64,000 nucleotides of DNA. It comes from Candidatus Spongiisociaceae bacterium. Its GTDB lineage: Bacteria; Actinomycetota; Acidimicrobiia; Spongiisociales; Spongiisociaceae. Under the pieces are notes generated by a model. That model was given only the letters and a program-made list of their open reading frames with translations, did no database searches and was not told where the DNA came from. Below are positions 8,319 to 59,523 of the stretch, piece by piece (position 1 is the stretch's first letter; each line of letters starts with the position of its first letter). The translations under genes were made by a program, and so were the position numbers. The stretch covers positions 1,568,001 to 1,632,000 of the forward strand of contig OZ241841.1 in assembly GCA_965202665.1 (NCBI GenBank). Direction: 5' to 3'.

Positions 8319-9707
8319 ATGAACCGGCGGGCCCGCCTGGCGGAGCGGTTGGCGGAGGCGGAAGCGCGGGCCGGGGCGTTGGGGCGGTCCGCCTTTTTCA
8401 CCTTGGCCGTTCCCGCCGGGGATAGGGCGGATCCCTTGGCGGCGGCGGTCGGCTCGGAGGCCCCTTTCGCTTTCTGGGAGCAACCGGCCCGCGGGATTTC
8501 GTTCGCCGCTTTGGGTTCCGCCCATTCCCTCCTCGTCTCCGGAGGGGCCGATCGGTTCACCGCTATGTCAAACGCCCTGCGGGAGTTGCGGGCCCGCACC
8601 TTGCATCAGTCGTGGGACGGGGCCGACCGGACCCCCCTTTTGATAGGAGGGTTTTCCTTCGCCGGCGACTCCGGTTGGCCGGGCTTTCCCGCCGGGCGGC
8701 TGACCTTGCCCGCGCTGGCCCTCATCCGCCGTCCGTCCGGGACGGCCTGGGTGGCGGCGGCGCGGGTTCGCCGGGGGGATGACCCGCATCGGTTGGCCGA
8801 CTCCCTCATGGAGCGGGTGGAGCGGGCCGACGCCCGTCCCCCGCCCGTCCCCCGCCCTGCCGCCCCCGACCTTCGGGCGGCGGCGGAGGCGGACCTGTCG
8901 GATCCCCTTTTCAGGGAGACGGCGCAAGCGGCCGTCGAAGAGACAATCAACGGCGGCCTGTCCAAAGTGGTTCCCGCCCGCCGTCTGACGGTGGAAAGAC
9001 GCCCCGACCCGGGCCCCTTCCTGGCCGCCCTGCGGGAACATTTCACCGAATGCGCCATCTTTGCCTTCGCCGCCCCGGAAGGTGTTTTCTGCGGGGCCAC
9101 CCCGGAACTTTTGGCCCGGGTGGAGGGAGTGTCGGTGTCCACCGCGGCGTTGGCGGGCACCGCTCGGCGCGGGGCGGACGCCGCGCAGGATGAAAACATC
9201 GCCCGATGGCTGCGCGGCGACCCCAAGCAGGCCGAGGAGCACGATTACGTGCATTCGGAGATACGCCGCCGTCTGCAACAGGGCGGTTTCGCAGTGGACC
9301 CCCCGGCGCCGACCGAGGTGATGCGGTTGCCCGGACTGCAGCATCTGCGCACCCCGGTCACCGCCGCCGCCCCGGTGGGAACCAACGTCTTGGACGTGAC
9401 CGGGGCCCTGCATCCCACCCCGGCCGTGGCCGGCCTTCCCACCGGGGAGGCTTTGGAATGGTTGCGGGCGCATGAGGGATTCGACCGAGGATGGTTCGCC
9501 GGTCCGGTCGGGTTCTGCGATCTGGCCGGGCAGGGCGAGTTTCACGCCGCGTTGCGGTGCGCCCTGTTGCGCCGGACTGATTGCGACCTGTTCGCCGGGG
9601 CGGGGGTGGTGGCCGCCTCCGTTCCCGAGCGGGAACTGGAGGAAACCGAACTGAAACTGCGGGCGTTGCTCCCCTGGGCGCTGGGCTCGGAACCGGCGCC
9701 GCCGTAA
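8319..9707 (+). CDS. menF: Isochorismate synthase
   Basis: KVVPAR, GATPELL, ALAGT, LHPTPAV, FAGAGVV; men gene context. Confidence 0.92.
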   Translation: MNRRARLAERLAEAEARAGALGRSAFFTLAVPAGDRADPLAAAVGSEAPFAFWEQPARGISFAALGSAHSLLVSGGADRFTAMSNALRELRARTLHQSWDGADRTPLLIGGFSFAGDSGWPGFPAGRLTLPALALIRRPSGTAWVAAARVRRGDDPHRLADSLMERVERADARPPPVPRPAAPDLRAAAEADLSDPLFRETAQAAVEETINGGLSKVVPARRLTVERRPDPGPFLAALREHFTECAIFAFAAPEGVFCGATPELLARVEGVSVSTAALAGTARRGADAAQDENIARWLRGDPKQAEEHDYVHSEIRRRLQQGGFAVDPPAPTEVMRLPGLQHLRTPVTAAAPVGTNVLDVTGALHPTPAVAGLPTGEALEWLRAHEGFDRGWFAGPVGFCDLAGQGEFHAALRCALLRRTDCDLFAGAGVVAASVPERELEETELKLRALLPWALGSEPAPP

Positions 9708-11407: not shown

Positions 11408-11483
11408 GGCGGCGGCGGACCTAAGAAATCCCTATCATCCAGGGGTTTTTTTATCCCCGAATGGGCGGGCTGGGGGGATTTAC

Positions 11484-11512
11484 TTGACAAATTAGGGGGG
11501 GGGGGGTAGCGT
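11484..11512 (+). promoter_or_regulatory. Sigma70-type promoter with poly-G spacer (copy 1: G12, 17-bp spacer)
   Basis: TTGACA-AATTA-G12-TAGCGT. Confidence 0.8.
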
Positions 11513-11598
11513 TTTTCCCTGTTGGGCTTTACGGCGTGTGAGGTTGCCCGCCCGATGGCCTGCGTGGTTAAAGAAAATCCTGAGGAAGGAGGATGTAA

Positions 11599-14500
11599 AT
11601 GTCGGTTCGCGTGTCGGGGAAGGTTTGGCTTATAGGATTGTTGGTGTTGGGTTTGACGGCGAGTTTGCTGGGTGCGGCTCCGCCGGGTGCGGTGGGGACG
11701 CATGGGGATGATGCGGATGTGGATTATGAGCCATCGTATTCGGCCTGCGTGGGGGCGGCGACGGAGTCTTTCGGGTTTGAGGACACGGAAGGATCGTTCG
11801 CGGAGGAGGCTATCAATTGTTTGGCGCATTATGGGATCACCACCGGCCGGTCGGCGACGATGTTCGCTCCCAACGATTCGGTGTTGCGGTGGCAGATGGC
11901 CCTGTTTTTGGCGAGGGCGGCCGCGGCGGCGGGGATCGTGTTGGCGAACCCGGCTACCGATCAGGGTTTCACGGATGTTGGGGGAGTGTCGGGGGAGGCC
12001 CGTAACGCTATCAACGGTTTAGCGGCGGCGGGGATTATGCCCGGCACGTCGCAGACGACGTTTAGTCCGAATAGTTCGGTGACGCGTGGTTCCATGGCTG
12101 TGTTGTTGGATGCTTTCCTGGCGCGGGCGACGTTGGGGGCGGGGGCGTTTGGGGGTGAGATTGAGAAGCATTCGGATATAGAGGTGGATAATTTCAATGT
12201 GTTTAGCGATATTGATGGGGTGTCGTTGAATACGTATAATGCGATTTATCGTATTTATGAGGTGGGGGTGACGCAGGGGGTGGGTGATCATCAGTTCGGT
12301 CCGGGTCGTAACGTGACAAGGGCGCAGATGGCGGCCTTCATCACCCGGGCCTTTGCGCACACCGTAGCCCGTCCGGCCGGGGTGTCTATTCAGGCGGAGA
12401 AAGATTCGGTGTTGGGGGAGTCGTCGGTGCAACTTATTGTGTCGGTGCGGGATGCGATGTTTCAGCCGGTGGTGGATGCGTCGGTGGATGTGTTCCGTTC
12501 CACCGACCCTGACAACGCTCTGAAGGACGACGGGACTTGCGATACAGCCAGTGTTAGTCAGGTGGCTGGTATTGGCCGGGCGGCGTGTGAGGTGGATACG
12601 GGGGATGAAACAACGGACGCGGCGGGGGATGTTACCGCGTTGCAGTTGCAGGTGTCGGATGCGGATGTGACGGTGTGGGCGTGGACCGGGGACCGGGCTG
12701 ACAAGTTTGATTCCGATGACACCACCGCCGCCCAGCTGACCGTCGGTTTCTCCAAGGCGGCCAGCCAGTTGCTGGTGACCGACAATTTGGAGGAGGGGCA
12801 GACCCATCTGCAGTTTGGGGAAACAGCCACGCTGACGGTGCAGGTGGCTAATGAGGATGATGAGCCGGTGGCGGAGAAGGATGTGGGGGTGAAGGTCGCC
12901 CAGGTTACCACTCCGGATGTGAGCAAGACGACGGAAACTAACTCGTCAACCAACACCTATACCACTGATGCGTCGGGCAAGTTTCAGTTGTCGTTTACCC
13001 AGACCGATCCCAGTTCCGGTGATGATGAGGACGCAACGGTGGTGGTTACTTTGAGCGAACCGTCCTCTTATACACTCCAGGATGAAGACGGCGAGGCATT
13101 CGCCTCCAAAACCTACACTTGGTCCGACGAGGCGGGGGTTCCGGCCAAGTTGGTGTTGGAAACGCGGCAGGAGTACGCCGAAGCGTCCGATGAGGGCCGG
13201 GGGGCGGTGGCGGCGGTTACCGCCACTTTGACCGACCAGTTCGGCAACCCGGTGCGCGGCCAGCGAATCCACTTCTGGTCCGACGACCCAGCCGGAGTGG
13301 GCCAGAAATCGGACGATATTGCTCTGGAATGGGTGCGGAACGCAATCACTTTGGCCGCCACCGGTACTGTTAATTCGGCCAACGTCCAGTGGCGGCGAGT
13401 GGGTTTCCGCATTTTGCGGAATTTGATGCCCCAGGTTACTTACACCCGTACCACCAACCGGTCGGGTGCGGCCACATTGTCCTACAGCCGGGATGCGACG
13501 GGGGGCGTGATCGAGACGATCCGGGCCCGGTTGGTGCGGGGTGAGGACGACGCCACCACGAGGAGCGAGAGGTGGCCGTGGAGCCGCGCCAGCGAAGCGG
13601 AGGATCCCCGAGACCTGGTGAGCGAGAGGGCGACCTTTTATTGGGCCGAAGAGTTGGACGACGACGATTCGGCGAAAGGCCGGATTTTGGTGAAAGACGC
13701 CGATGCCCGCCGGCTGGTGTTCGGAGCTGATGACGGCCGGGTGAGAATGATCACCTACGACGGCAACGACCAGTTCCGAACGAACGGGACCCCAATCGTG
13801 ATGTCCGAGTTCGAAAAGTATCTGAAAGGCACCGCCGCTCATATCATCATCAACGAATATTCCGATACTGCGAGCGACGTCAGTTCGTTCGACACGACGG
13901 CGGAATGGCCGCAGGTGGATATGAGCAAGATTCCGGTGCCGCAGGCATCGGGACGGACGGTGGAGGCCGTTGGCAACGGCATGGTCATTTTAGCGGCCGA
14001 CGGCGGCGCTATCGTGGTCGGTTCTTTCTGGGAGAACAACTACGCCGGTGCGGTGTATGTCTTCGACGGGGTGGACGATGACGCCCCTCAGAAGTTGACC
14101 GCCCCCACTCCGCAACCCACCACTTTCACCGATAGCCATGTCACTAACCATTGGTATAACAAGCCGTGGGAATTCAACCTGCCGACTTCGGGAGGGCATT
14201 TCGGCTATGCGGTGGACATCCGGGGCGACACTATCGTGGTGGGCGAACCGGGCCGCCTCAGCACCCATACGATCAACAAAGGAACCTCCGACCCTCGGAC
14301 TGGGGTGGCAACCGACGGAGCGGTTTACGTTTACACCAAGAACGCTTCCGGCACCTGGGAGTTGGACGCCACGTTGACGTTGGCGGACTTCGTGGGCTCG
14401 GAGAACGGCCGGATCACCGGCGGTTGGGACGCGGGAATGGAGCTGGGCCGGTCAGTGGTGGTTTCCGAAGATGAAACCACCATCGCCGCCTCCGCACCCC

Positions 14501-15447
14501 GGTTTTTAACTAACCAGAACAGCCGACGAATGGGCGGGGTGCACATTTTCAAACGGCCCGATCAAACTGGCCGGAACACGGCAACCATCGGCAAATGGGA
14601 TGATGCTACGGGGGCCGCAACCTCCCGACTGGATGTGTCTACCAATTATATAAACACCAATAAAAACAGCGGAAACCGGACCTTGGCCCGCGATAGGGAG
14701 TTGGCTATTTCTCGAGATGGAAGCACGGTGGTAGTGGGCAACAGCTGGTTTAGCCGGGTGTTGGATAATGTGAAACATGATTGGGTGGGAGGGGCGTTTA
14801 TCTACACCGCCCCATCCGGCGGATGGGTAGCCGCCGCGCAATATGAGGAAGACACCGTCTTGCAGTCCCCCACCCCCTACTCCGGGGAGAGAATGGCCGT
14901 GTCGCTGGGGGTGTCCGCTGATGGAAGCACGGTGGTGGTGTCGGCTCACTTCCGGCCCGAGTTGATGCGACAAGGCAAGGTGCTGATCTACGAGAGGCCC
15001 GACCAGAGCGGCCGTTCCGCGGGCGACAAATGGGGCGACGCCGACAACCTGATGGACCCCAGCGCCGTTTTGACGCATCCTTTGGAGCATCCGGATAAGC
15101 CCGACGGTTGCTTGGCTTCGGCCGGTCCGGTGCTGGGATGCAACATTGGGGAGACTTTCGGACAATGGGTGGACATCAACGATGCCGGCGACCGTATTCT
15201 GGCCGCCCACCCCGCCCGTACCGAAGGCCGCTATCTGGGTTCCACGCGTCTCTTCACCGAGCCGGCGGGCGGCTGGTCGACGGTCACCGCCGACAACCAG
15301 CCCTCTTCGGTGGAGTTCTTAGGGGCGGACCCCGGGGCTTTCGCGGGATGGCGAAACCATTTCGATCAAGACACCGGCGACATCTACATGATGGATTCCG
15401 ATCCCGACGCCAATGGCGCCGTCCGCGCCTACAAAATAACGCCTTAG
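11599..15447 (+). CDS. Large surface protein, paralogue 1: signal peptide, 3 SLH domains, Ig-like domains, FG-GAP-like propeller repeats
   Basis: SLH motifs (FAPNDSVLRWQMA, FSPNSSVTRGSMA, FGPGRNVTRAQMA); FGYAVDIRGDTIVVG/GAVYVY repeats; GGAGG SD. Confidence 0.9.
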   Translation: MSVRVSGKVWLIGLLVLGLTASLLGAAPPGAVGTHGDDADVDYEPSYSACVGAATESFGFEDTEGSFAEEAINCLAHYGITTGRSATMFAPNDSVLRWQMALFLARAAAAAGIVLANPATDQGFTDVGGVSGEARNAINGLAAAGIMPGTSQTTFSPNSSVTRGSMAVLLDAFLARATLGAGAFGGEIEKHSDIEVDNFNVFSDIDGVSLNTYNAIYRIYEVGVTQGVGDHQFGPGRNVTRAQMAAFITRAFAHTVARPAGVSIQAEKDSVLGESSVQLIVSVRDAMFQPVVDASVDVFRSTDPDNALKDDGTCDTASVSQVAGIGRAACEVDTGDETTDAAGDVTALQLQVSDADVTVWAWTGDRADKFDSDDTTAAQLTVGFSKAASQLLVTDNLEEGQTHLQFGETATLTVQVANEDDEPVAEKDVGVKVAQVTTPDVSKTTETNSSTNTYTTDASGKFQLSFTQTDPSSGDDEDATVVVTLSEPSSYTLQDEDGEAFASKTYTWSDEAGVPAKLVLETRQEYAEASDEGRGAVAAVTATLTDQFGNPVRGQRIHFWSDDPAGVGQKSDDIALEWVRNAITLAATGTVNSANVQWRRVGFRILRNLMPQVTYTRTTNRSGAATLSYSRDATGGVIETIRARLVRGEDDATTRSERWPWSRASEAEDPRDLVSERATFYWAEELDDDDSAKGRILVKDADARRLVFGADDGRVRMITYDGNDQFRTNGTPIVMSEFEKYLKGTAAHIIINEYSDTASDVSSFDTTAEWPQVDMSKIPVPQASGRTVEAVGNGMVILAADGGAIVVGSFWENNYAGAVYVFDGVDDDAPQKLTAPTPQPTTFTDSHVTNHWYNKPWEFNLPTSGGHFGYAVDIRGDTIVVGEPGRLSTHTINKGTSDPRTGVATDGAVYVYTKNASGTWELDATLTLADFVGSENGRITGGWDAGMELGRSVVVSEDETTIAASAPRFLTNQNSRRMGGVHIFKRPDQTGRNTATIGKWDDATGAATSRLDVSTNYINTNKNSGNRTLARDRELAISRDGSTVVVGNSWFSRVLDNVKHDWVGGAFIYTAPSGGWVAAAQYEEDTVLQSPTPYSGERMAVSLGVSADGSTVVVSAHFRPELMRQGKVLIYERPDQSGRSAGDKWGDADNLMDPSAVLTHPLEHPDKPDGCLASAGPVLGCNIGETFGQWVDINDAGDRILAAHPARTEGRYLGSTRLFTEPAGGWSTVTADNQPSSVEFLGADPGAFAGWRNHFDQDTGDIYMMDSDPDANGAVRAYKITP

Positions 15448-15469
15448 TCGCTTCACGCAACCCAACACG

Positions 15470-15510
15470 ACAGGAAACCCCCCGCACCGAAGCGGGGGGC
15501 TTTCCTGTTT
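15470..15510 (+). terminator. Intrinsic terminator
   Basis: ACAGGAAACCCCCCGC-ACCGAA-GCGGGGGGCTTTCCTGTTT hairpin. Confidence 0.8.
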
Positions 15511-15552
15511 AAACCAAACTTCAGGGGATGGGGGCGGGTTGGAGGGATTGAC

Positions 15553-15579
15553 TTGACAAATTGGGGGGGGGGGTAGCGT
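15553..15579 (+). promoter_or_regulatory. Sigma70-type promoter with poly-G spacer (copy 2: G11, 15-bp spacer)
   Basis: TTGACA-AATT-G11-TAGCGT. Confidence 0.75.
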
Positions 15580-15665
15580 TTTAGTCTGTTGGGCTTTACG
15601 GCGTGTGAGGTTGCCCGCTGAGTGGTCTGCGTAGTTAACGAAAAATCCTGGATTCGGAAGGAGGA

Positions 15666-18600
15666 ATGATAATGGCGGCTCGTGTGTTGGGTAGGGTTTG
15701 GCTTGTAGGATTGTTGGTGTTGGGTCTGGTGGCCAGTTTGTTGGGTGCGGCTCCGCCGGGTGCGGTGGGGACGCATGGGGATGATGCGGATGTGGATTAT
15801 GAGCCGTCGTATTCGGCCTGTGTGGGGGCGGCGACGGAGTCTTTCGGGTTTGAGGACACGGAAGGGTCGTTCGCGGAGGGGGCGATTGATTGTTTGGCGC
15901 ATTATGGGATAACGACCGGTCGGTCGGCGACGATGTTTGCTCCCAATGATTCGGTGTTGCGGTGGCAGATGGCCCTGTTTTTGGCGAGGGCGGCCGCGGC
16001 GGCGGGGATCGTGTTGGCGAATCCGGCTGCTGATCAGGGGTTTACGGATGTGGGGGCGGTGTCGGGGGAGGCCCGTAACGCTATCAACGGTTTAGCGGCG
16101 GCGGGAATCATGCCCGGCATGTCGCAGACGACGTTTAGTCCGAATAGTTCGGTGACGCGTGGTTCCATGGCTGTGTTGTTGGACGCTTTCCTGGCGCGGG
16201 CGACTCCGGGGGCGGGGGCGTTTGGGGGTGAGATTGAGAAGTATTCGGATGTGATGGTGGATAGTTCCGATGTTTTCAATGATATTAGTGGGGTGTCGTT
16301 GAATACTTATAATGCGATTTATCGTATTTATGAGGTGGGGGTGACGCAGGGGGTGGGGGATCATCAGTTCGGGCCGGGTCGTAATGTGACGCGGGCGCAG
16401 ATGGCGGCGTTTATCACGAGGGCGTTTGCGCATACGGTGGCTCGTCCGGCGGGGGTGTCGATTCAGGCGGAGCGGGATTCGGTGTTGGGGGAGTCGTCGG
16501 TGCAGTTGATTGTGTCGGTGCGGGATGCGATGTTTCAGCCGGTGGTGGATGCGTCGGTGGATGTGTTCCGTTCCACCGATCCCGACAACGCTTTGAAGGA
16601 CGACGGCACATGCGATACAGCTAGTGTTGGTCAGGTGGCTGGTATTGGCAGGGCGGCGTGTGAGGTGGATACGGGGGATGAGACGACTGATGCGGCGGGG
16701 GACGTTACCGCGTTGCAGTTGCAGGTGTCGGATGCGGATGTGACGGTGTGGGCGTGGACCGGGGACCGGGATGACAAGTTCGATTCCGACGACACGGCTT
16801 CGGCGCAGTTGACCGTCGGTTTCTCTAAGGCGGCCAGCCAGTTGTTGGTGACCGACAATTTGGAGGAGGGGCAGACCCATTTGCAGTTCGGGGAAACGGC
16901 TACGTTGACGGTGCAGGTGGCTAATGAGGATGATGAGCCGGTGGCGGAGAAGGGGGTGGGGGTGAAGGTCGCCCAGGTTACCACTCCCGATGTGAGCAAG
17001 ACGACGGAGACCAACTCGTCCACCAATACCTATACCACTGACGCGTCGGGCAAGTTTCAGTTGTCGTTCACCCTGACCGATCCCAGCTCCGGCGACGATG
17101 AGGACGCGACGGTGGCGGTTACTTTGAGCGAACCGTCCTCTTATTCCCTCCAAGACGAAGACGGCACCGCATTCTCCTCCAAGACCTACACTTGGTCCGA
17201 TGATGTGGGGGTTCCGGCCAAGTTGGTGTTGGAAACGCAGAATATGTGGGCCGAGGCGTCGGATGAGGGCCGGGGGGCGGTAGCGGCGGTTACCGCCACT
17301 TTGACCGACCAGTTCGGCAACCCGGTACGGGGACAGCGAATCCACTTTTGGTCCGACGACCCAGCCGGGGTAAGTGAGAAATCTGAAGATGCCCTGTTGG
17401 CCAGGGTGCGGACCACCGCCACCAGCGGCAGCCAAAATTCCCACAAGGATTTTCACTTCACCGTGTTGCATGATTTGATCGGCGAGGCTCAGTACGCGCG
17501 TACTACCAACCGGGCGGGTAGGGCTGTATTGACCTACAACCGGGATGCGACGGCGGGTGTCATTGAGACGGTGCGGGCCCGAATAATACGGGGAGCGGAC
17601 GACGCCAAAAGAGTAAGCGACGACGACCCTGATCTGTTGAGCGAGAAAGTGTCTTTCTTTTGGGCTGAAGAGTTGGACGACGACGATTCGGATTCTGGTC
17701 GAATTTTGGTGAAGGAGGCGGACGCCCGGCGGGTGGTGTTTGCGGCCCAGGATGGCCGGGTGAGAATGATCACCTACGATGGCAACGACCAGTTCCGGCG
17801 GGCGGGCGTTCCGATAACGAGTGCGGATTTTGAAAAATATCTGAAAGACACCGCCGCCCATATTACGGTCAACATTTATTCCGACACCGCAGGCGGCGTC
17901 AGTTCGTTTGACGCGACGGCGGAATGGCCGTCTACCGATCTGACCGAAATTCCGGTTCCGACGGCGTTGGGTCAGACCGCCACCGAACTCCACAACGGAA
18001 TGATTCATTACGCGGTAGATAGTGACACGATCGTGGTTGGTTCTTTCATGGATAACAACTACGCCGGCGCGGTATACGTTTACGACGGGGTGGACGATGA
18101 AACACCCCAGAAGTTGACCGCTCCCACCCCGCAACCCACCACTTTCACTGGGGATTGGCGTACCGCTGCTTGGAACCTCAAGCCGTGGTCTCTCAACCTG
18201 GCGATTTCGGGAGGGCAGTTCGGCTATGCGGTGGATATCCGGGGCGATACCATCGTGGTGGGAGAGCCCGGTCGTTTGAGCAACAGTGTTATAGCCGCTT
18301 CCCGCGTTCGTAATGGAGTCACCCAGGCTAGCATCCGGAATGGGCGGGCGGCCGACGGCGCGGTTTACGTTTACACCAAGAACAGTTCCGGAACCTGGGA
18401 GTTGGACGCCACTTTGACGGCCAACGGCTCCACTTTGCGCGGGGGGCGGATACCGTTGAACGACTGGGGGGCGAGAGGGTTTCAGATGGGCAGGGCGGTG
18501 GCGGTCTCCGGCGACGAAACCCACATTGCCGCTAGCACTCCCGGCTTCCTAACCGTCCAAAGGCGGATAGGCGGGGCCTTCGTGTTTGAACGGCCCGACC

Positions 18601-19463
18601 AAACCGGACGGAACACGGCAACCAACGGCAAATGGGACGATGATAACGGAGCCAACTCGGACCGCTTTGAGCCGGGAGCCGACAACGTGAACCAAAACCA
18701 AAATCGTTGGAGCGAGCTTTTCGGGGCGGACCGGGAGTTGGCGATCTCGAACAACGGGCTGACGGTGGTGGTGGGGGCCCACTACTTCAACCGAACAGTG
18801 GAGGGGGTGCGATACACCTGGGGAGGAGGGGCGTATATCTTCACCAGCGCTGACTGGAATGACGGCACGGCAAACATTTATGAACAGGACGCCGTCCTGA
18901 ACTCCCCCAACCCGTACACGTCTGAGGGGTTTGGGGCGTCGGTGGCGGTGGACGACGACGGGTCGACGGTGGTGGTTTCCGCCAACTTCCGTCCCAACAT
19001 GTTACGACGGGGCAAAGCCCTGATCTTCGAACGTCCCGACCAGTCCGGACGTTCCGCCAACAACCAATGGGAGAACGAGATGAATCCCACCGCTGTCCTC
19101 ACGGCCCCGGATCATCCAGACGCGCCTGATAATTGCACGGCCGCAGCCGGCCCGGTGCTGGGATGCAACATCGGAGAGGTGTTCGGACAGTGGGTGGACA
19201 TCACCGGCGACGGCGGGAAAATCTTAGCCTCCCGGGGTTTCCGGACCGAGGGCGCCCTGCGGGGTTCAAGCCTTATCTTCACCGAACCGGCCGGCGGTTG
19301 GTCGACGGTCACCGCCGACCGGCAACCCTCCAATGTGGAATATCTGGGCTCCGAACTGGAATCGCTACTTGGATGGCGCAACCATTTCGACCAAGCCAAC
19401 GGCAAGTTTTACGTCTATGAGGAACCCGAGGGCGGGATACTCATATACCAGATAACGCCTTAG
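15666..19463 (+). CDS. Large SLH/Ig/FG-GAP surface protein, paralogue 2
   Basis: N-terminal ~570 aa nearly identical to paralogue 1; same architecture. Confidence 0.9.
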   Translation: MIMAARVLGRVWLVGLLVLGLVASLLGAAPPGAVGTHGDDADVDYEPSYSACVGAATESFGFEDTEGSFAEGAIDCLAHYGITTGRSATMFAPNDSVLRWQMALFLARAAAAAGIVLANPAADQGFTDVGAVSGEARNAINGLAAAGIMPGMSQTTFSPNSSVTRGSMAVLLDAFLARATPGAGAFGGEIEKYSDVMVDSSDVFNDISGVSLNTYNAIYRIYEVGVTQGVGDHQFGPGRNVTRAQMAAFITRAFAHTVARPAGVSIQAERDSVLGESSVQLIVSVRDAMFQPVVDASVDVFRSTDPDNALKDDGTCDTASVGQVAGIGRAACEVDTGDETTDAAGDVTALQLQVSDADVTVWAWTGDRDDKFDSDDTASAQLTVGFSKAASQLLVTDNLEEGQTHLQFGETATLTVQVANEDDEPVAEKGVGVKVAQVTTPDVSKTTETNSSTNTYTTDASGKFQLSFTLTDPSSGDDEDATVAVTLSEPSSYSLQDEDGTAFSSKTYTWSDDVGVPAKLVLETQNMWAEASDEGRGAVAAVTATLTDQFGNPVRGQRIHFWSDDPAGVSEKSEDALLARVRTTATSGSQNSHKDFHFTVLHDLIGEAQYARTTNRAGRAVLTYNRDATAGVIETVRARIIRGADDAKRVSDDDPDLLSEKVSFFWAEELDDDDSDSGRILVKEADARRVVFAAQDGRVRMITYDGNDQFRRAGVPITSADFEKYLKDTAAHITVNIYSDTAGGVSSFDATAEWPSTDLTEIPVPTALGQTATELHNGMIHYAVDSDTIVVGSFMDNNYAGAVYVYDGVDDETPQKLTAPTPQPTTFTGDWRTAAWNLKPWSLNLAISGGQFGYAVDIRGDTIVVGEPGRLSNSVIAASRVRNGVTQASIRNGRAADGAVYVYTKNSSGTWELDATLTANGSTLRGGRIPLNDWGARGFQMGRAVAVSGDETHIAASTPGFLTVQRRIGGAFVFERPDQTGRNTATNGKWDDDNGANSDRFEPGADNVNQNQNRWSELFGADRELAISNNGLTVVVGAHYFNRTVEGVRYTWGGGAYIFTSADWNDGTANIYEQDAVLNSPNPYTSEGFGASVAVDDDGSTVVVSANFRPNMLRRGKALIFERPDQSGRSANNQWENEMNPTAVLTAPDHPDAPDNCTAAAGPVLGCNIGEVFGQWVDITGDGGKILASRGFRTEGALRGSSLIFTEPAGGWSTVTADRQPSNVEYLGSELESLLGWRNHFDQANGKFYVYEEPEGGILIYQITP

Positions 19464-19485
19464 CCGCTTCACGCAACCCAACACG

Positions 19486-19525
19486 ACGGGAAGCCCCCCG
19501 CACCGAAGCGGGGGGCTTCCTGTTT
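19486..19525 (+). terminator. Intrinsic terminator
   Basis: GGAAGCCCCCCGC-ACCGAA-GCGGGGGGCTTCC-TGTTT. Confidence 0.8.
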
Positions 19526-19568
19526 ACCCCAAACTTCAGGGGATTGGGGCGGGTTGGGGCGGATTGAC

Positions 19569-19597
19569 TTGACAAATTAGGGGGGGGGGGGTAGCGT
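19569..19597 (+). promoter_or_regulatory. Sigma70-type promoter with poly-G spacer (copy 3: G12, 17-bp spacer)
   Basis: TTGACA-AATTA-G12-TAGCGT. Confidence 0.8.
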
Positions 19598-19689
19598 TTT
19601 GGACTGTTGGGCTTTACGGCGTGTGAGGTTGCCCGCTGAATGACCTGCGTAGTTAACAAAAAAATCCTGGATTCGGAAGGAGGATGTAA

Positions 19690-22600
19690 ATGTCGGTTCG
19701 CGTGTCGGGGAAGGTTTGGCTTGTAGGATTGTTGGTGTTGGGTTTGACGGCGAGTTTGCTGGGTGCGGCTCCGCCGGGGGCGGTGGGGACGCATGGGGAT
19801 GATGCGGATGTTGATTATGAGCCATCGTATTCGGCCTGCGTGGGGGCGGCGACGGAGTCTTTCGGGTTTGAGGACACGGAGGGGTCGTTCGCGGAGGGGG
19901 CGATTGATTGTTTGGCGCATTATGGGATCACCACGGGACGGTCGGCGACGATGTTCGCTCCCAATGATTCGGTGTTGCGGTGGCAGATGGCCCTGTTTTT
20001 GGCGAGGGCGGCCGCGGCGGCGGGGATCGTGTTGGCGAACCCGGCGGCTGATCAGGGTTTCACGGATGTGGGGGCGGTGTCGGGGGAGGCCCGTAACGCT
20101 ATCAACGGTTTAGCGGCGGCGGGAATCATGCCTGGTGTGTCGCAGACGACGTTTAGTCCGAATAGTTCGGTGACGCGTGGTTCCATGGCTGTGTTGCTGG
20201 ACGCGTTTTTAGCGCGGGCGACGTTGGGGGCGGGGGCGTTTGGGGGTGAGATTGAGAAGTATTCGGATATAGAGGTGGATAATTTCAATGTGTTTAGCGA
20301 TATTGATGGGGTGTCGTTGAATACTTATAATGCGATTTATCGGATTTATGAGGTGGGGGTGACGCAGGGGGTGGGGGATCATCAGTTCGGGCCGGGTCGT
20401 AATGTGACGCGGGCGCAGATGGCGGCGTTCATCACCCGGGCGTTTGCGCACACCGTAGCCCGTCCGGCCGGGGTGTCCATACAAGCGGAGAAAGATTCGG
20501 TGCTGGGGGAATCATCGGTGCAACTTATCGTATCGGTGCGGGATGCGATGTTTCAGCCGGTGGTGGATGCGTCGGTGGATGTGTTCCGTTCCACCGATCC
20601 CGACAACGCGTTGAATGATGATGGCAGGTGTAATGCGGCCAGTGTTGGTCAGGTGGCTGGTATCGGCAGGGCGGCTTGTGAGGTGGATACGGGGGATGAG
20701 ACTACGGACGCGGCGGGGGATATCACCTCCTTGCAACTGCAGGTGTCGGATGCGGATGTGACGGTGTGGGCGTGGACCGGGGACCGGGCTGACAAGTTTG
20801 ATTCCGATGACACCACCGCCGCCCAGTTGACCGTCGGGTTTTCCAAGGCGGCCAGCCAGTTGTTGGTGACTGACAATTTGGAGGAGGGGCAGACCCGTTT
20901 GCAGTTCGGGGAGACGGCTACGCTGACGGTGCAGGTGGCTAATGAGGATGATGAGCCGGTGGCGGAGAAGGGGGTGGGGGTGAAGGTCGCCCAGGTTACT
21001 ACTCCGGATGTGAGCAAGGCGACGGAGACCAACTCGTCCACCAACACCTATACCACGGACGCTACCGGGAAGTTTCAGTTGTCGTTTACCCAGACCGATC
21101 CCAGTTCCGGTGATGATGAGGACGCAACGGTGGTGGTTACTTTGAGCGAACCGTCCTCTTATTCCCTCCAAGACGAAGACGGGACCGCGTTCTCCTCCAA
21201 GACCTACACCTGGTCCGATGATGTGGGGGTTCCGACCAAACTGGTGTTGGAAACCCGGCAGATGTGGGCCGAAGCGTCTGAAGAGGGCCGGGGGGCGGTG
21301 GCGTCGGTTACCGCCACTTTGACCGACCAGTTCGGCAACCCGGTGCGGGGCCAGCGAATTCATTTCTGGTCCGATGACCCAGCCGGGGTAAGCGAGAAAT
21401 CTGAAGATGCCCTGTTGACCAGGGTGCGGACCACCGCTGCCAGCGACGCCAACAATATCCATCGTGCTTTTCCCTTCACCGTGTTGCATAATCTGGTCGG
21501 TGAGGCTCAGTACGCGCGTACCACCAACCGGGCAGGCGCGGCCACATTGACCTACAACCGGGATGCGACGGCGGGTGTCATCGAGACGGTGCGGGCCCGG
21601 ATGATACGGGGGGAGGACGACGCTAAAAGAGAAAGCGGCGACGACCCCGATCTGTTAAGCGATAAAGTGTCTTTCTTTTGGGCTGAAGAGTTGGACGACG
21701 ACGATTCGGATTCTGGTCGAATTTTGGTGAAGGAGGAGGACGCCCGGCGGGTGGTGTTTGCGGCTGAGGATGGCCGGGTGAGAATGATCACCTACGATGG
21801 CAACGACCAGTTCCGGCGGGCGGGCGCTCCGATAACGAGTGCGGATTTTGAAAAATATCTGAAAGACACCGCCGCCCATATTACGGTCAACATTTATTCC
21901 GACACCGCAGGCGGCGTCAGTTCGTTCGACGCGACGGCGGAATGGCCGTCTACCGATCTGCCCAAAATTCCGGTTCCGACGGCGCTGGGCCGGACCGTCA
22001 CCAGGCTCCACAACGGAATGATTCATTACGCGGTGGATGGGGGCACGATCGTGGTTGGTTCTTTCTTGGAGAACAACTACGCCGGCGCGGTGTACGTTTA
22101 TGACGGGGTGGGCGATGAAACGCCCCAGAAGTTGACCGCCCCCACCCCGCAACCCACCACTTTCACCGGGGATTGGACTACCACTGCTTGGAACGTCAAG
22201 CCGTGGTCTCTCAACTTGGCGACTTCGGGAGGGCAGTTCGGTTATGCGGTGGATATCCGGGGCGACACCATCGTGGTGGGAGAGCCCGGTCGTTTGAGCA
22301 ACAGTGTCATAGCCGCTTCCCGCGTTCGTAATGGAGTGACCCAGACTAGCATCCGGAACGGGCGGGCAGCCGACGGCGCGGTTTACGTTTACACCAAGAA
22401 CAGTTCCGGAACCTGGGAGTTGGACGCCACTTTGACGGCTAACGGCTCCACTTTGCGCGGGGGACGGATACCGTTGAACGACTGGGGGGCGAGAGGGTTT
22501 CAGATGGGCCTGGCGGTGGCGGTCTCCGGCGACGAAACCCACATTGCGGCCAGCACTCCCGGCTTCTTAACCGTCCAAAGGCGGATAGGCGGGGCCTTCG

Positions 22601-23466
22601 TGTTTGAACGGCCCACCAGTGCTGCCAACGGCAAATGGGACGATGACAACGGGGCCAACTCGGACCGCTTTGAGCCGGGAGCCGACAACGTGAACGAAAA
22701 CCAAAATCGTTGGAGCGAGCTTTTCGGGGCGGACCGGGAGTTGGCGATCTCGAACAACGGACTGACGGTGGTGGTGGGGGCCAACCTTTTCAACCGAACA
22801 GTGGAGGGGGTGCGATACACCTGGGGGGGAGGGGCGTATATCTTTACCAGCACCAACTGGAATGACGGCGCGGCGGACATTTATGAACAGGACGCCGTCC
22901 TGAACTCCCCCAACCCGTTCTGGGCTGAGAAGTTTGGCCGGTCGGTGGCGGTGGACGATGACGGGTCGACGGTGGTGGTTTCCTCCAACTTCCGTCCCAA
23001 CATGTTGCGACGGGGCAACGCGCTGATCTACGAACGTCCAGCCGGACCTCTAGACAACGACCAATGGGAGGACGAGATGAATCCCACCGCTATCCTCACC
23101 GCCCCGGATCATCCAGACGCGCCTGATAATTGCACGGCCGCGTTGGGCCCGGTGCTGGGATGCAACGTTGGGGAGGTGTTCGGACAGTGGGTGGACATCA
23201 CCGGCGACGGCGAGAAGATCTTAGCCTCCCGGGGTTACCGGACCGAGGGCGCCCTGCGGGGTTCAACCCTTCTCTTCACCGAACCGTCCGGCGGCTGGTC
23301 GACGGTCACCGCCGACCGGCAACCCTCCAATGTGGAATATCTGGGTTCCGAACTGGAGGGGCTGTTTGGATGGCGCAACCATTTCGACCAAGCCAGCGAC
23401 AACGACGATATTTACTCCTATGAGGATCCCGAAGGCGGGATACTCATATACCAGATAACGCCTTAG
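19690..23466 (+). CDS. Large SLH/Ig/FG-GAP surface protein, paralogue 3
   Basis: Same architecture; C-terminal half closest to paralogue 2. Confidence 0.9.
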   Translation: MSVRVSGKVWLVGLLVLGLTASLLGAAPPGAVGTHGDDADVDYEPSYSACVGAATESFGFEDTEGSFAEGAIDCLAHYGITTGRSATMFAPNDSVLRWQMALFLARAAAAAGIVLANPAADQGFTDVGAVSGEARNAINGLAAAGIMPGVSQTTFSPNSSVTRGSMAVLLDAFLARATLGAGAFGGEIEKYSDIEVDNFNVFSDIDGVSLNTYNAIYRIYEVGVTQGVGDHQFGPGRNVTRAQMAAFITRAFAHTVARPAGVSIQAEKDSVLGESSVQLIVSVRDAMFQPVVDASVDVFRSTDPDNALNDDGRCNAASVGQVAGIGRAACEVDTGDETTDAAGDITSLQLQVSDADVTVWAWTGDRADKFDSDDTTAAQLTVGFSKAASQLLVTDNLEEGQTRLQFGETATLTVQVANEDDEPVAEKGVGVKVAQVTTPDVSKATETNSSTNTYTTDATGKFQLSFTQTDPSSGDDEDATVVVTLSEPSSYSLQDEDGTAFSSKTYTWSDDVGVPTKLVLETRQMWAEASEEGRGAVASVTATLTDQFGNPVRGQRIHFWSDDPAGVSEKSEDALLTRVRTTAASDANNIHRAFPFTVLHNLVGEAQYARTTNRAGAATLTYNRDATAGVIETVRARMIRGEDDAKRESGDDPDLLSDKVSFFWAEELDDDDSDSGRILVKEEDARRVVFAAEDGRVRMITYDGNDQFRRAGAPITSADFEKYLKDTAAHITVNIYSDTAGGVSSFDATAEWPSTDLPKIPVPTALGRTVTRLHNGMIHYAVDGGTIVVGSFLENNYAGAVYVYDGVGDETPQKLTAPTPQPTTFTGDWTTTAWNVKPWSLNLATSGGQFGYAVDIRGDTIVVGEPGRLSNSVIAASRVRNGVTQTSIRNGRAADGAVYVYTKNSSGTWELDATLTANGSTLRGGRIPLNDWGARGFQMGLAVAVSGDETHIAASTPGFLTVQRRIGGAFVFERPTSAANGKWDDDNGANSDRFEPGADNVNENQNRWSELFGADRELAISNNGLTVVVGANLFNRTVEGVRYTWGGGAYIFTSTNWNDGAADIYEQDAVLNSPNPFWAEKFGRSVAVDDDGSTVVVSSNFRPNMLRRGNALIYERPAGPLDNDQWEDEMNPTAILTAPDHPDAPDNCTAALGPVLGCNVGEVFGQWVDITGDGEKILASRGYRTEGALRGSTLLFTEPSGGWSTVTADRQPSNVEYLGSELEGLFGWRNHFDQASDNDDIYSYEDPEGGILIYQITP

Positions 23467-23489: not shown

Positions 23490-23527
23490 CGGGAGGCCTC
23501 CCGCTAAAGCGGGGGGCTTCCTGTTTT
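23490..23527 (+). terminator. Intrinsic terminator
   Basis: GGGAGGCCTCCCGC-TAAA-GCGGGGGGCTTCC-TGTTTT. Confidence 0.75.
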
Positions 23528-28376: not shown

Positions 28377-28452
28377 GGTGGAGACAAAGGGATTCGAACC
28401 CCCGACCTCCTCATTGCGAGTGAGGCGCTCTTCCAGACTGAGCTACGGCCCC
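28377..28452 (-). tRNA. tRNA-Ala(CGC)
   Basis: GGGGCCGTAGCTCAG...CCTCA-CTCGCAA-TGAGG...GGTTCGAATCC; G3:U70 identity pair; imperfect 3' half. Confidence 0.9.
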
Positions 28453-28475
28453 GTGAATATTGGGTTTACTGTCCG

Positions 28476-28550
28476 CGCCCCCGGAAGGAGATTCGAACCT
28501 TCGGCCAAGAGATTAGAAGGCTCTTGCTCTATCCGCTGAGCTACGAGGAC
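28476..28550 (-). tRNA. tRNA-Arg(TCT) with 2-nt insertion in the T arm
   Basis: GTCCTCGTAGCTCAG...CTTCTAA anticodon loop...GAAGGTTCGAAT-CT-CCTTC. Confidence 0.8.
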
Positions 28551-59220: not shown

Positions 59221-59450
59221 CGGGCGTCGGCCACCTAAGTTGATCCGGACGTTCAGTTGTCATACGCCTCCTTCTGTTCGGTTGCGCACAGGTTGGCAGG
59301 GGGGTGTGACAAAAACGGGGGATGGGCGGAGAACGCGAAAAAAATACTTAGGGCCGGGTTCGGCGGGGGTCGGGCGGAGATCGGATTTACAGCGAGAGTG
59401 ATTGGCGCAAGGGCGCAACGAGCCGACCTGGGGGAGCGGTGGGGAGAGGG

Positions 59451-59523
59451 TGGGCCCGGCGGGAATCGAACCCGCGACCTTCGGATTAAAAGTCCGCTGC
59501 TCTGCCGATTGAGCTACAGGCCC
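59451..59523 (-). tRNA. tRNA-Lys(TTT)
   Basis: GGGCCTGTAGCTCAATCGG...CGGA-CTTTTAA-TCCG...GGTTCGATTCC...GGGCCCA. Confidence 0.96.

Follow-up and report, generated by a model that had tools for sequence, protein, structure and literature searches.

Poly-G runs within promoter spacers of SLH surface-protein genes suggest graded phase variation in an actinobacterium likely to dwell in sponges

Why do three neighboring surface-protein genes each carry a run of 11 or 12 G residues between the predicted −35 and −10 elements of their promoters? The genes, called copies 1, 2, and 3 here, lie in a window of 64,000 nt (the whole stretch of DNA that was analyzed) from a Candidatus Spongiisociaceae bacterium, at positions 1,568,001 to 1,632,000 of contig OZ241841.1. 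Positions such as 11484 are window coordinates, and positions such as 2270985 are coordinates of the genome under study (G000), a single contig of 2.77 Mb with 64% GC that is 94% complete. Five of the 18 runs containing the stretch are labeled sponge metagenome and 4 marine metagenome; no RNA run is among those listed, which carries no information on expression. The nearest titled homologues of the copy proteins are from metagenome-assembled genomes (MAGs) of Candidatus Spongiisociaceae, and remoter ones are from other Acidimicrobiia. From these run labels and homologues, the organism is likely a sponge-dwelling actinobacterium. Our answer is that slipped-strand changes in the G runs probably alter the length of the promoter spacer and so give transcriptional phase variation like that of porA and vlp, probably in graded form.

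All three promoters are on the forward strand. Copy 1 has a predicted −35 hexamer, TTGACA, at 11484-11489, then a 17-nt spacer at 11490-11506 made up of a fixed linker (AATTA) and G12 (11495-11506), and a predicted −10 hexamer, TAGCGT, at 11507-11512, which fits TAnnnT and matches TATAAT at 3 of 6 positions. Copy 3 repeats this arrangement at 19569-19597, with the AATTA linker, G12 at 19580-19591, and a 17-nt spacer before TAGCGT. In copy 2 (15553-15579, identified by sequence pattern and contigs), the linker between TTGACA and the run is AATT, the run is G11 (15563-15573), and the spacer to TAGCGT is 15 nt, so that this promoter is short by two bases: one in the slippery tract and the other a fixed difference in the linker. 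The original prediction had described these motifs, run lengths, and spacers exactly, and its placement of poly-G inside the −35/−10 spacer is borne out, with the hexamers predicted from consensus and conservation. Each promoter sits roughly 85-95 nt 5′ of its SLH open reading frame (ORF) of 1258-1282 residues, and the upstream regions of the three copies are nearly identical. The −35 hexamer is perfect, and TAGCGT has no TG extension; a −10 element this weak should depend on the perfect −35. A plain search of the window for G8 gave no enrichment (19 matches against a shuffle mean of 38), and G-richness alone is therefore no signal.

Tract alleles were read from the assembled contigs of public runs and decoded against the flanks of each paralogue; the library types are unrecorded. 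Two of the data sets, X1 and X2, are libraries of one sample, S1, and X3, X4, and X7 come from other studies. For copy 1 in X2, G11 had a depth of 16.4 and G12 a depth of 10.3, and for copy 3 the corresponding depths were 10.5 and 5.8. Among the X1 contigs listed, G11 accounted for a depth of 55 of 130.9 at copy 1 and 50 of 139.8 at copy 3; the depth sums imply a third copy 3 contig, of depth 57, that probably carries G12. In sample S1, then, G11 (16-nt spacer) and G12 (17-nt spacer) are present in roughly equal parts at copies 1 and 3. Copy 2 is different: X1 contains one unbroken AATT-G11 contig of 63 bases, consisting of TTGACAAATT, G11, and the copy 2 flank, at a depth of 123.9, compared with about 137-141 for unique sequence, and this contig also occurs in X7, which is from a different study. 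The G11/AATT form of copy 2 is real and little mixed. Elsewhere, a copy-3-like promoter has G11 in X3 and G10 in X7 with a G12 form beside it (alleles or two paralogues), an X4 contig bridges copy 1 with exactly G12, a 2214-base X7 contig gives paralogue 2270985 a G12 where G000 has G11, and paralogue 1466357 keeps G12 in long contigs of both X3 and X7. The original prediction named two findings that would have undone it, and neither was obtained: tract length is not invariant but differs within and between samples, and the copy 2 difference is not an assembly artifact, as the G11 contig is found in X1 and X7. Its description of the genes as currently on, low, and on, in contrast, is not supported in that form: copies 1 and 3 are mixed in S1, and the description is a snapshot of mixed populations.

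What a change of one or two bases would do can be judged from promoters that lack a tract. TAnnnT is the actinobacterial −10 consensus, and spacers of 16-19 nt are allowed in Corynebacterium glutamicum, according to excerpts of PMC3890552 and PMC6742748. Downstream of the 468 tract-free TTGACA sites in G000, TAnnnT occurred at spacers of 12 through 22 nt with counts of 8, 3, 4, 2, 6, 22, 22, 10, 1, 2, and 8. Native promoters of this genome thus prefer 17-18 nt, with 15 at background and 16 weak, which agrees with the earlier claim that 17 bp is the optimal spacer. The claim of an independent on/off switch fared unevenly. Its tract variability stood, as did the separate transcription units described below, whereas two discrete states now look less likely, as 16 nt may also be active and a graded dial, as in porA, is probably the better description.

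The cassette extends far beyond the window. In G000, the pattern TTGACA-N4/5-G11..13-(T)-TAnnnT occurs at 24 sites, with spacers of 15 (8 sites), 16 (11), and 17 nt (5). All but one of these (23/24) precede large secreted surface proteins of three families: 9 sites lie before members of the 1200-1400 residue family to which the window copies belong, 11 before proteins of 1840-2400 residues, and 3 before proteins of 4500 residues. One representative from each of the latter two classes has a C-terminal SLH match, and the 4500-residue one also matches Calx-beta. Counted from the gene side, the cassette lies 5′ of 23 of the 33 SLH-type ORFs of at least 1100 residues and none of the 28 shorter ones, a tally that includes a hand-added 4492-residue paralogue with no SLH match and excludes 966794-970375, a candidate tract-free paralogue with a 17-nt promoter that was rejected because it is not an SLH gene. 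The remaining site (L075, G000:C1:844000-847500) precedes a 95-residue restriction-like remnant followed by a methylase-HNH gene. A cassette before a gene of restriction-modification (R-M) type is also seen in the congener G001 (L069).

The length spectrum of G/C runs in this genome is bimodal. There are 865 runs of 7, 96 of 8, 1 of 9, and none of 10, and then 24 of 11, 28 of 12, 14 of 13, and 9 longer ones, for 75 runs of at least 11 where geometric extrapolation predicts about 0.15. A TTGnnn-(14-22)-TAnnnT frame encloses 26 of these 75 runs as against 7 of the 961 runs of 7-8. Promoter tracts and coding tracts have the same 11-13 length spectrum. The context of non-promoter tracts was judged from open-frame lengths, and of 20 frames scanned beside such tracts, 10 matched methylase or R-M families, 1 matched DUF1156, 3 matched other families, and 6 gave no match. 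Repeat tracts lie in methyltransferase reading frames with both in-frame and out-of-frame states present, as would be expected in a phasevarion (a phase-variable methyltransferase regulon). The original prediction of a switch at three genes understates the scope, which takes in 24 promoters, three surface-protein families, and coding tracts in R-M genes.

Several other loci in G000 carry related features. Poly-C versions of the spacer, TTGCAA-C12-AATCTA-TAGAAT and TTGCTT-T-C13-TCTT-TATCAT, both of 18 nt (G000:C1:1172644 and 2390131), lie upstream of SLH proteins of 10,406 and 12,734 residues, and a C12 run at 1652180 precedes an 8083-residue SLH protein with no clear promoter frame. One paralogue, at L076 (G000:C1:1775000-1787000), lacks the tract, and its 16-nt promoter opens with the same TTGACTTGACAA; an inverted partial copy there has C14 and C15 runs in the signal-peptide region, out of frame. 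Three tandem ORFs of 1415-1582 residues at L074 (G000:C1:1213000-1232999), helicase/R-M-like by eye, contain 11 runs of G11-G13 at repeated positions, several of them near the C-terminus. The only run longer than 19 is a G33 in an AT-rich context at G000:C1:640404. Finally, four near-identical AT-rich TTGACA-17-TAGAAT promoters lie about 100 nt 5′ of genes of about 1.3 kb (454804-456108, 1196762-1198036, 2445041-2446315, and 2531568-2532851), and these loci are possibly copies of one mobile element.

The exact TTGACA-linker-G8 pattern is found in 6 of 40 genomes searched, strongly only in the genus of G000 and G001 (g1) and more weakly in the sister genus g4. By a tally entered by hand, G001 has 40 distinct promoters of this kind, with spacers of 15 (19), 16 (15), 17 (2), 18 (3), and 19 nt (1), and the genes behind them encode SLH and adhesin-like proteins and, in one case, an N6-methylase. 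Runs of at least 11 number 75 and 81 in the g1 genomes and 74, 76, and 44 in g4 genomes; elsewhere in the family there are 3-15 in single-contig genomes of other genera and 45 in one fragmented g7 genome, and other families have 0-1, with the exception of one genome (G033) with 15. Neither g1 genome has a G10 run, whether in promoters or in coding sequence, which suggests that mutation sets the run-length band and that the linker would decide where on the promoter response curve that band falls. Homologues in g4 have another layout, TTGC-Gn-linker-TATAAT-like, with spacers of 17 (3), 18 (1), 19 (5), 20 (7), and 21 nt (3) in 19 of 20 hand-picked regions that were chosen for a homologue or a tract, not as an unbiased census, and of which one (L126) has no promoter. 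The one g4 copy with an interrupted run has a spacer of exactly 17 nt. The G run of g4 appears to occupy the same functional slot with different flanks, and its predicted spacers are mostly too long. In the g4 genome G009 (L119-L122, L126), some homologues have a second G run about 190 nt beyond the one in the promoter, within the codons of the signal peptide, with G11 in frame in 4 of 5 and G12 out of frame in L121; as read from the sequence, this double run is a predicted transcriptional plus translational switch. A pattern scan of Joint Genome Institute (JGI) metagenome contigs returned 7 matches, none with the flanks of this promoter family, and was not used.

Returning to the window, the three copies likely form separate transcription units, each with its own promoter and with predicted terminators after every copy and before copy 1 (all features on the forward strand). 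A hairpin with a T-rich 3′ arm at 11423-11451 (−14.4 kcal/mol, z −2.45) follows the upstream menD-like gene, which has TPP-enzyme domains, and is a likely terminator insulating copy 1. The copy 1 gene (11599-15447, 1282 residues), with the ribosome-binding site AGGAGG at 11587-11592, is followed by a strong hairpin and likely terminator at 15469-15509 (−32.1 kcal/mol, z −8.6). The copy 2 gene (15666-19463, 1265 residues, with its start probably at 15672) is likewise followed by a strong hairpin and likely terminator at 19485-19524 (−37.1 kcal/mol, z −7.9), and the copy 3 gene (19690-23466, 1258 residues) by a 15-bp hairpin at 23490-23523, a likely terminator facing a convergent MFS gene. In copies 1 and 3, the true start is directly overlapped by an ATG-TAA start-stop pair (ATGTAAATG, at 11593-11601 and 19684-19692); copy 2 has ATGATAATG in its place. 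The Rfam scan of the window returned only tRNAs, with tRNA-Ala, tRNA-Arg, and tRNA-Lys genes at 28377-28550 and 59449-59523, and a tRNA-Glu call at 8687-8780 lies inside a coding gene and is without Rfam support.

The encoded proteins have the predicted architecture of SLH-anchored surface proteins with divergent heads. Copy 1 has a signal-peptide-like start (by inspection), three SLH domains, a weak immunoglobulin (Ig)-like stalk, and an FG-GAP β-propeller head; copies 2 and 3 share this architecture and are 75% and 76% identical to copy 1, respectively. N-terminal SLH domains match PF00395 in all three copies (E ∼1e-24 to 1e-26, 2-3 stretches per protein), mid-protein Ig-like matches are weak and below the Pfam cutoff in all three, and FG-GAP repeats are present, with an FG-GAP_2 match. 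The assignment to an SLH-protein family made in the original prediction is thus confirmed with three SLH domains per copy, the export signal being read by inspection. The three copies are nearly identical over their first 565 residues and divergent in the head. A structure prediction for the copy 1 head (515 residues, 27-sequence alignment) gave a predicted local distance difference test score (pLDDT) of 84.7 and a predicted template-modeling score (pTM) of 0.90, and every match listed by Foldseek for this model was an integrin alpha head (best E 5e-12, template-modeling score ∼0.5, 11-16% identity). Although the predicted head shares the FG-GAP β-propeller fold of the integrin alpha chain, the copy proteins have an N-terminal SLH anchor where integrin has a membrane helix, and a shared modeled fold does not show integrin-like function. 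G000 has one polysaccharide pyruvyl-transferase gene (PF04230), a candidate for the CsaB-type enzyme that anchoring of SLH domains to a pyruvylated wall polymer would need.

How might these parts work together? The slipped-strand origin, the reversibility, the effect on transcription, the combinatorial display, and the selective agent are the steps that we infer. The replication polymerase would slip on runs of G11-G13, and one-base loops would likely be left unrepaired, since NucS was found in G000 and a search of this 94%-complete genome did not detect MutS or MutL; the NucS of Mycobacterium smegmatis does not repair indels of 1-2 bp, according to an excerpt of PMC11551767. Each G gained or lost would shift TTGACA by one base relative to the weak TAGCGT. 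Because tract-free promoters peak at 17-18 nt and rarely use 15, transcription would likely be low or absent with a spacer of 15, intermediate or already active with 16, and high with 17-18. The fixed linker would set the resting point, with AATT copies moving mainly between 15 and 16 nt and AATTA copies (1 and 3) between 16 and 17 nt. The outcome would be a heritable, reversible raising and lowering of each gene's transcription, and with 24 sites, the set of wall-anchored proteins on show, with heads of the integrin-alpha-like propeller or Calx-beta kind, would differ from cell to cell while coding tracts of the same length randomize R-M systems in parallel. Phage, sponge phagocytes, and adhesion niches are candidate selecting agents, with phage our first guess because R-M genes share the device.

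Several observations weigh against this account. Two tract-free paralogues (915748 and 1775981) have 16-nt spacers, so that a switch between G11 and G12 may have little effect at copies 1 and 3, and the sharp step is more likely to fall between 15 and 16-17 than between 16 and 17. A generic σ70 scan of the window does not list the three promoters because TAGCGT matches TATAAT at only half its positions. The −35 of g4 (TTGCGG) is the analyst's reading, and many g4 promoters have an extended TG −10, which would weaken spacer dependence. MutS and MutL are "not found", and a 94%-complete genome does not prove their absence. The G11 share at copy 1 is about 42% in X1 and about 58% in X2, two libraries of one sample, and depth halves over the tract in X2, which means that library stutter contributes some part of the allele mixtures. 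X1 and X2 may also be the assembly's own source sample.

The 16-nt paralogues also speak for a tract that is hypermutable and near-neutral, in a promoter copied by duplication and gene conversion that would function with either 16 or 17 nt, expression being controlled by something else. Spread by copying is certain given the near identity of the upstream regions and first 565 residues among the three copies, and the spectrum shared by promoter and coding tracts suggests that mutation, not promoter selection, sets the length. Near-neutrality nevertheless leaves unexplained why runs of 9-10 are almost absent from G000 while 75 runs of at least 11 are kept, mostly at surface and R-M genes, and why a sister genus should place a different layout in the same functional slot. 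It also sits poorly with the 15-nt spacers at 8 of 24 sites in G000 and 19 of 40 in G001, given that this length is rare among tract-free promoters. We judge the near-neutral explanation unlikely. Runs of G11-G12 are error-prone on all sequencing platforms, and the tract could instead have a fixed structural role, as the seed of a G-quadruplex or as a regulator site, its length differences being sequencing or assembly stutter. The disagreement between the two S1 libraries and the use of contigs in place of raw reads speak for such an explanation. Yet within X1, copy 2 stays an unsplit G11 while copies 1 and 3 split, and the long contigs of X3 and X7 both keep G12 at paralogue 1466357, which is hard to square with blanket under-calling. 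The exact G12 of the X4 contig over copy 1 points the same way, as does the contrast between 3-15 long runs in single-contig genomes of other family genera and 44-81 in g1 and g4, and we consider stutter around a fixed element very improbable. Least probable of all is a real promoter elsewhere, with the tract acting upstream of the core or in the leader, as do tracts outside the core promoter in other bacteria. The poor match of TAGCGT to TATAAT would favor it, but TAnnnT is the actinobacterial −10 consensus (PMC3890552 and PMC6742748, in part), TTGACA is perfect, the hexamer pair is kept at 24 G000 and 40 G001 sites while the flanks diverge, and the upstream hairpins leave little room for another promoter.

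Slipped-strand phase variation through the promoter spacer, then, remains the reading that we prefer, and a bolder extension of it can be offered tentatively, as more doubtful than probable. This clade of sponge symbionts may possess one of the largest promoter-based phasomes known, in which a portable TTGACA-linker-Gn-TAnnnT cassette controls 24-40 giant adhesin genes. Mutation would hold the run at 11-13, and the linker would keep the spacer of most genes slightly away from the optimum, on the short side in g1 and on the long side in g4, a convergent arrangement of opposite polarity. Each cell would then carry only a few integrin-like and Calx-beta heads, drawn at random, with R-M systems flipping by the same device. 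This would amount to antigenic variation of the kind seen in pathogens, but in a host that lacks adaptive immunity. Most known cases of repeat-driven phase variation come from vertebrate pathogens and commensals, with antibodies as the selection. The 75 tracts of this sponge symbiont, about one in three of which lies in the promoter spacer of a giant surface protein, suggest that phage or innate host recognition may sustain the strategy at a larger scale. In practical terms, per-locus tract histograms across sponge individuals in existing metagenomes could report the surface state of an uncultured symbiont, and the 24-40 near-identical promoters are a natural series for spacer effects in Actinomycetota. 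Tract lengths and frameshifts in such MAGs are best taken to show a population at one moment, and should not be mistaken for fixed states or pseudogenes.

Calx-beta and R-M enrichment in sponge Actinobacteriota is described in PMC11706023, in the accessible main text of which "phase variation", "SLH", and "FG-GAP" do not occur, and the accessible part of PMC11868660 does not contain "symbiont". Literature searches on phase variation and homopolymers in sponges or symbionts found no paper on this system among sources that mostly excluded subscription papers, and the name Spongiisociaceae led to nomenclature only.

Compared with known systems, the mechanism type is familiar from pathogens, and what is likely unusual here is the scale. 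The paralogous vlp family of Rosengarten and Wise 1991 reportedly, to go by the title, combines one switch per gene with combinatorial display. It relies on a poly-A tract and comprises a handful of small lipoprotein genes. The present system differs in its poly-G runs, its proteins of 1200-4500 residues, the severalfold larger size of the set, and its fixed 4-6 nt linkers, which would shift the resting points. The likeness lies in a paralogue set with one spacer switch per gene: an indel in the −35/−10 spacer switches surface-protein transcription in Mycoplasma hyorhinis (vlp), M. arthritidis (maa2), and M. mycoides (vmm), according to an excerpt of PMC2268961. Neisseria meningitidis porA is similar in having a G run of about 11 inside the −35/−10 spacer of a surface-protein gene, and its output is graded, with 10G about 2-fold and 9G 6- to 13-fold below 11G (PMC3639595, in part). 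Unlike porA, a single gene in a Gram-negative pathogen with MutS, the system described here belongs to an actinobacterium that has NucS, and it uses one cassette for unrelated SLH-anchored families, at 24-40 promoters, the majority of which have a resting spacer short of the predicted optimum. The closest genome-wide parallel is the Campylobacter phasome, with dozens of poly-G/C tracts of narrow length peak in surface and R-M genes (PMC6321876, in part), although most of those tracts are G9-G10 and ORFs contain 77% of them, whereas the runs described here peak at G11-G13 and promoter spacers contain 26 of the 75. The opposite polarity in the sister genus and the sponge-associated actinobacterial host further set this system apart from those already known.

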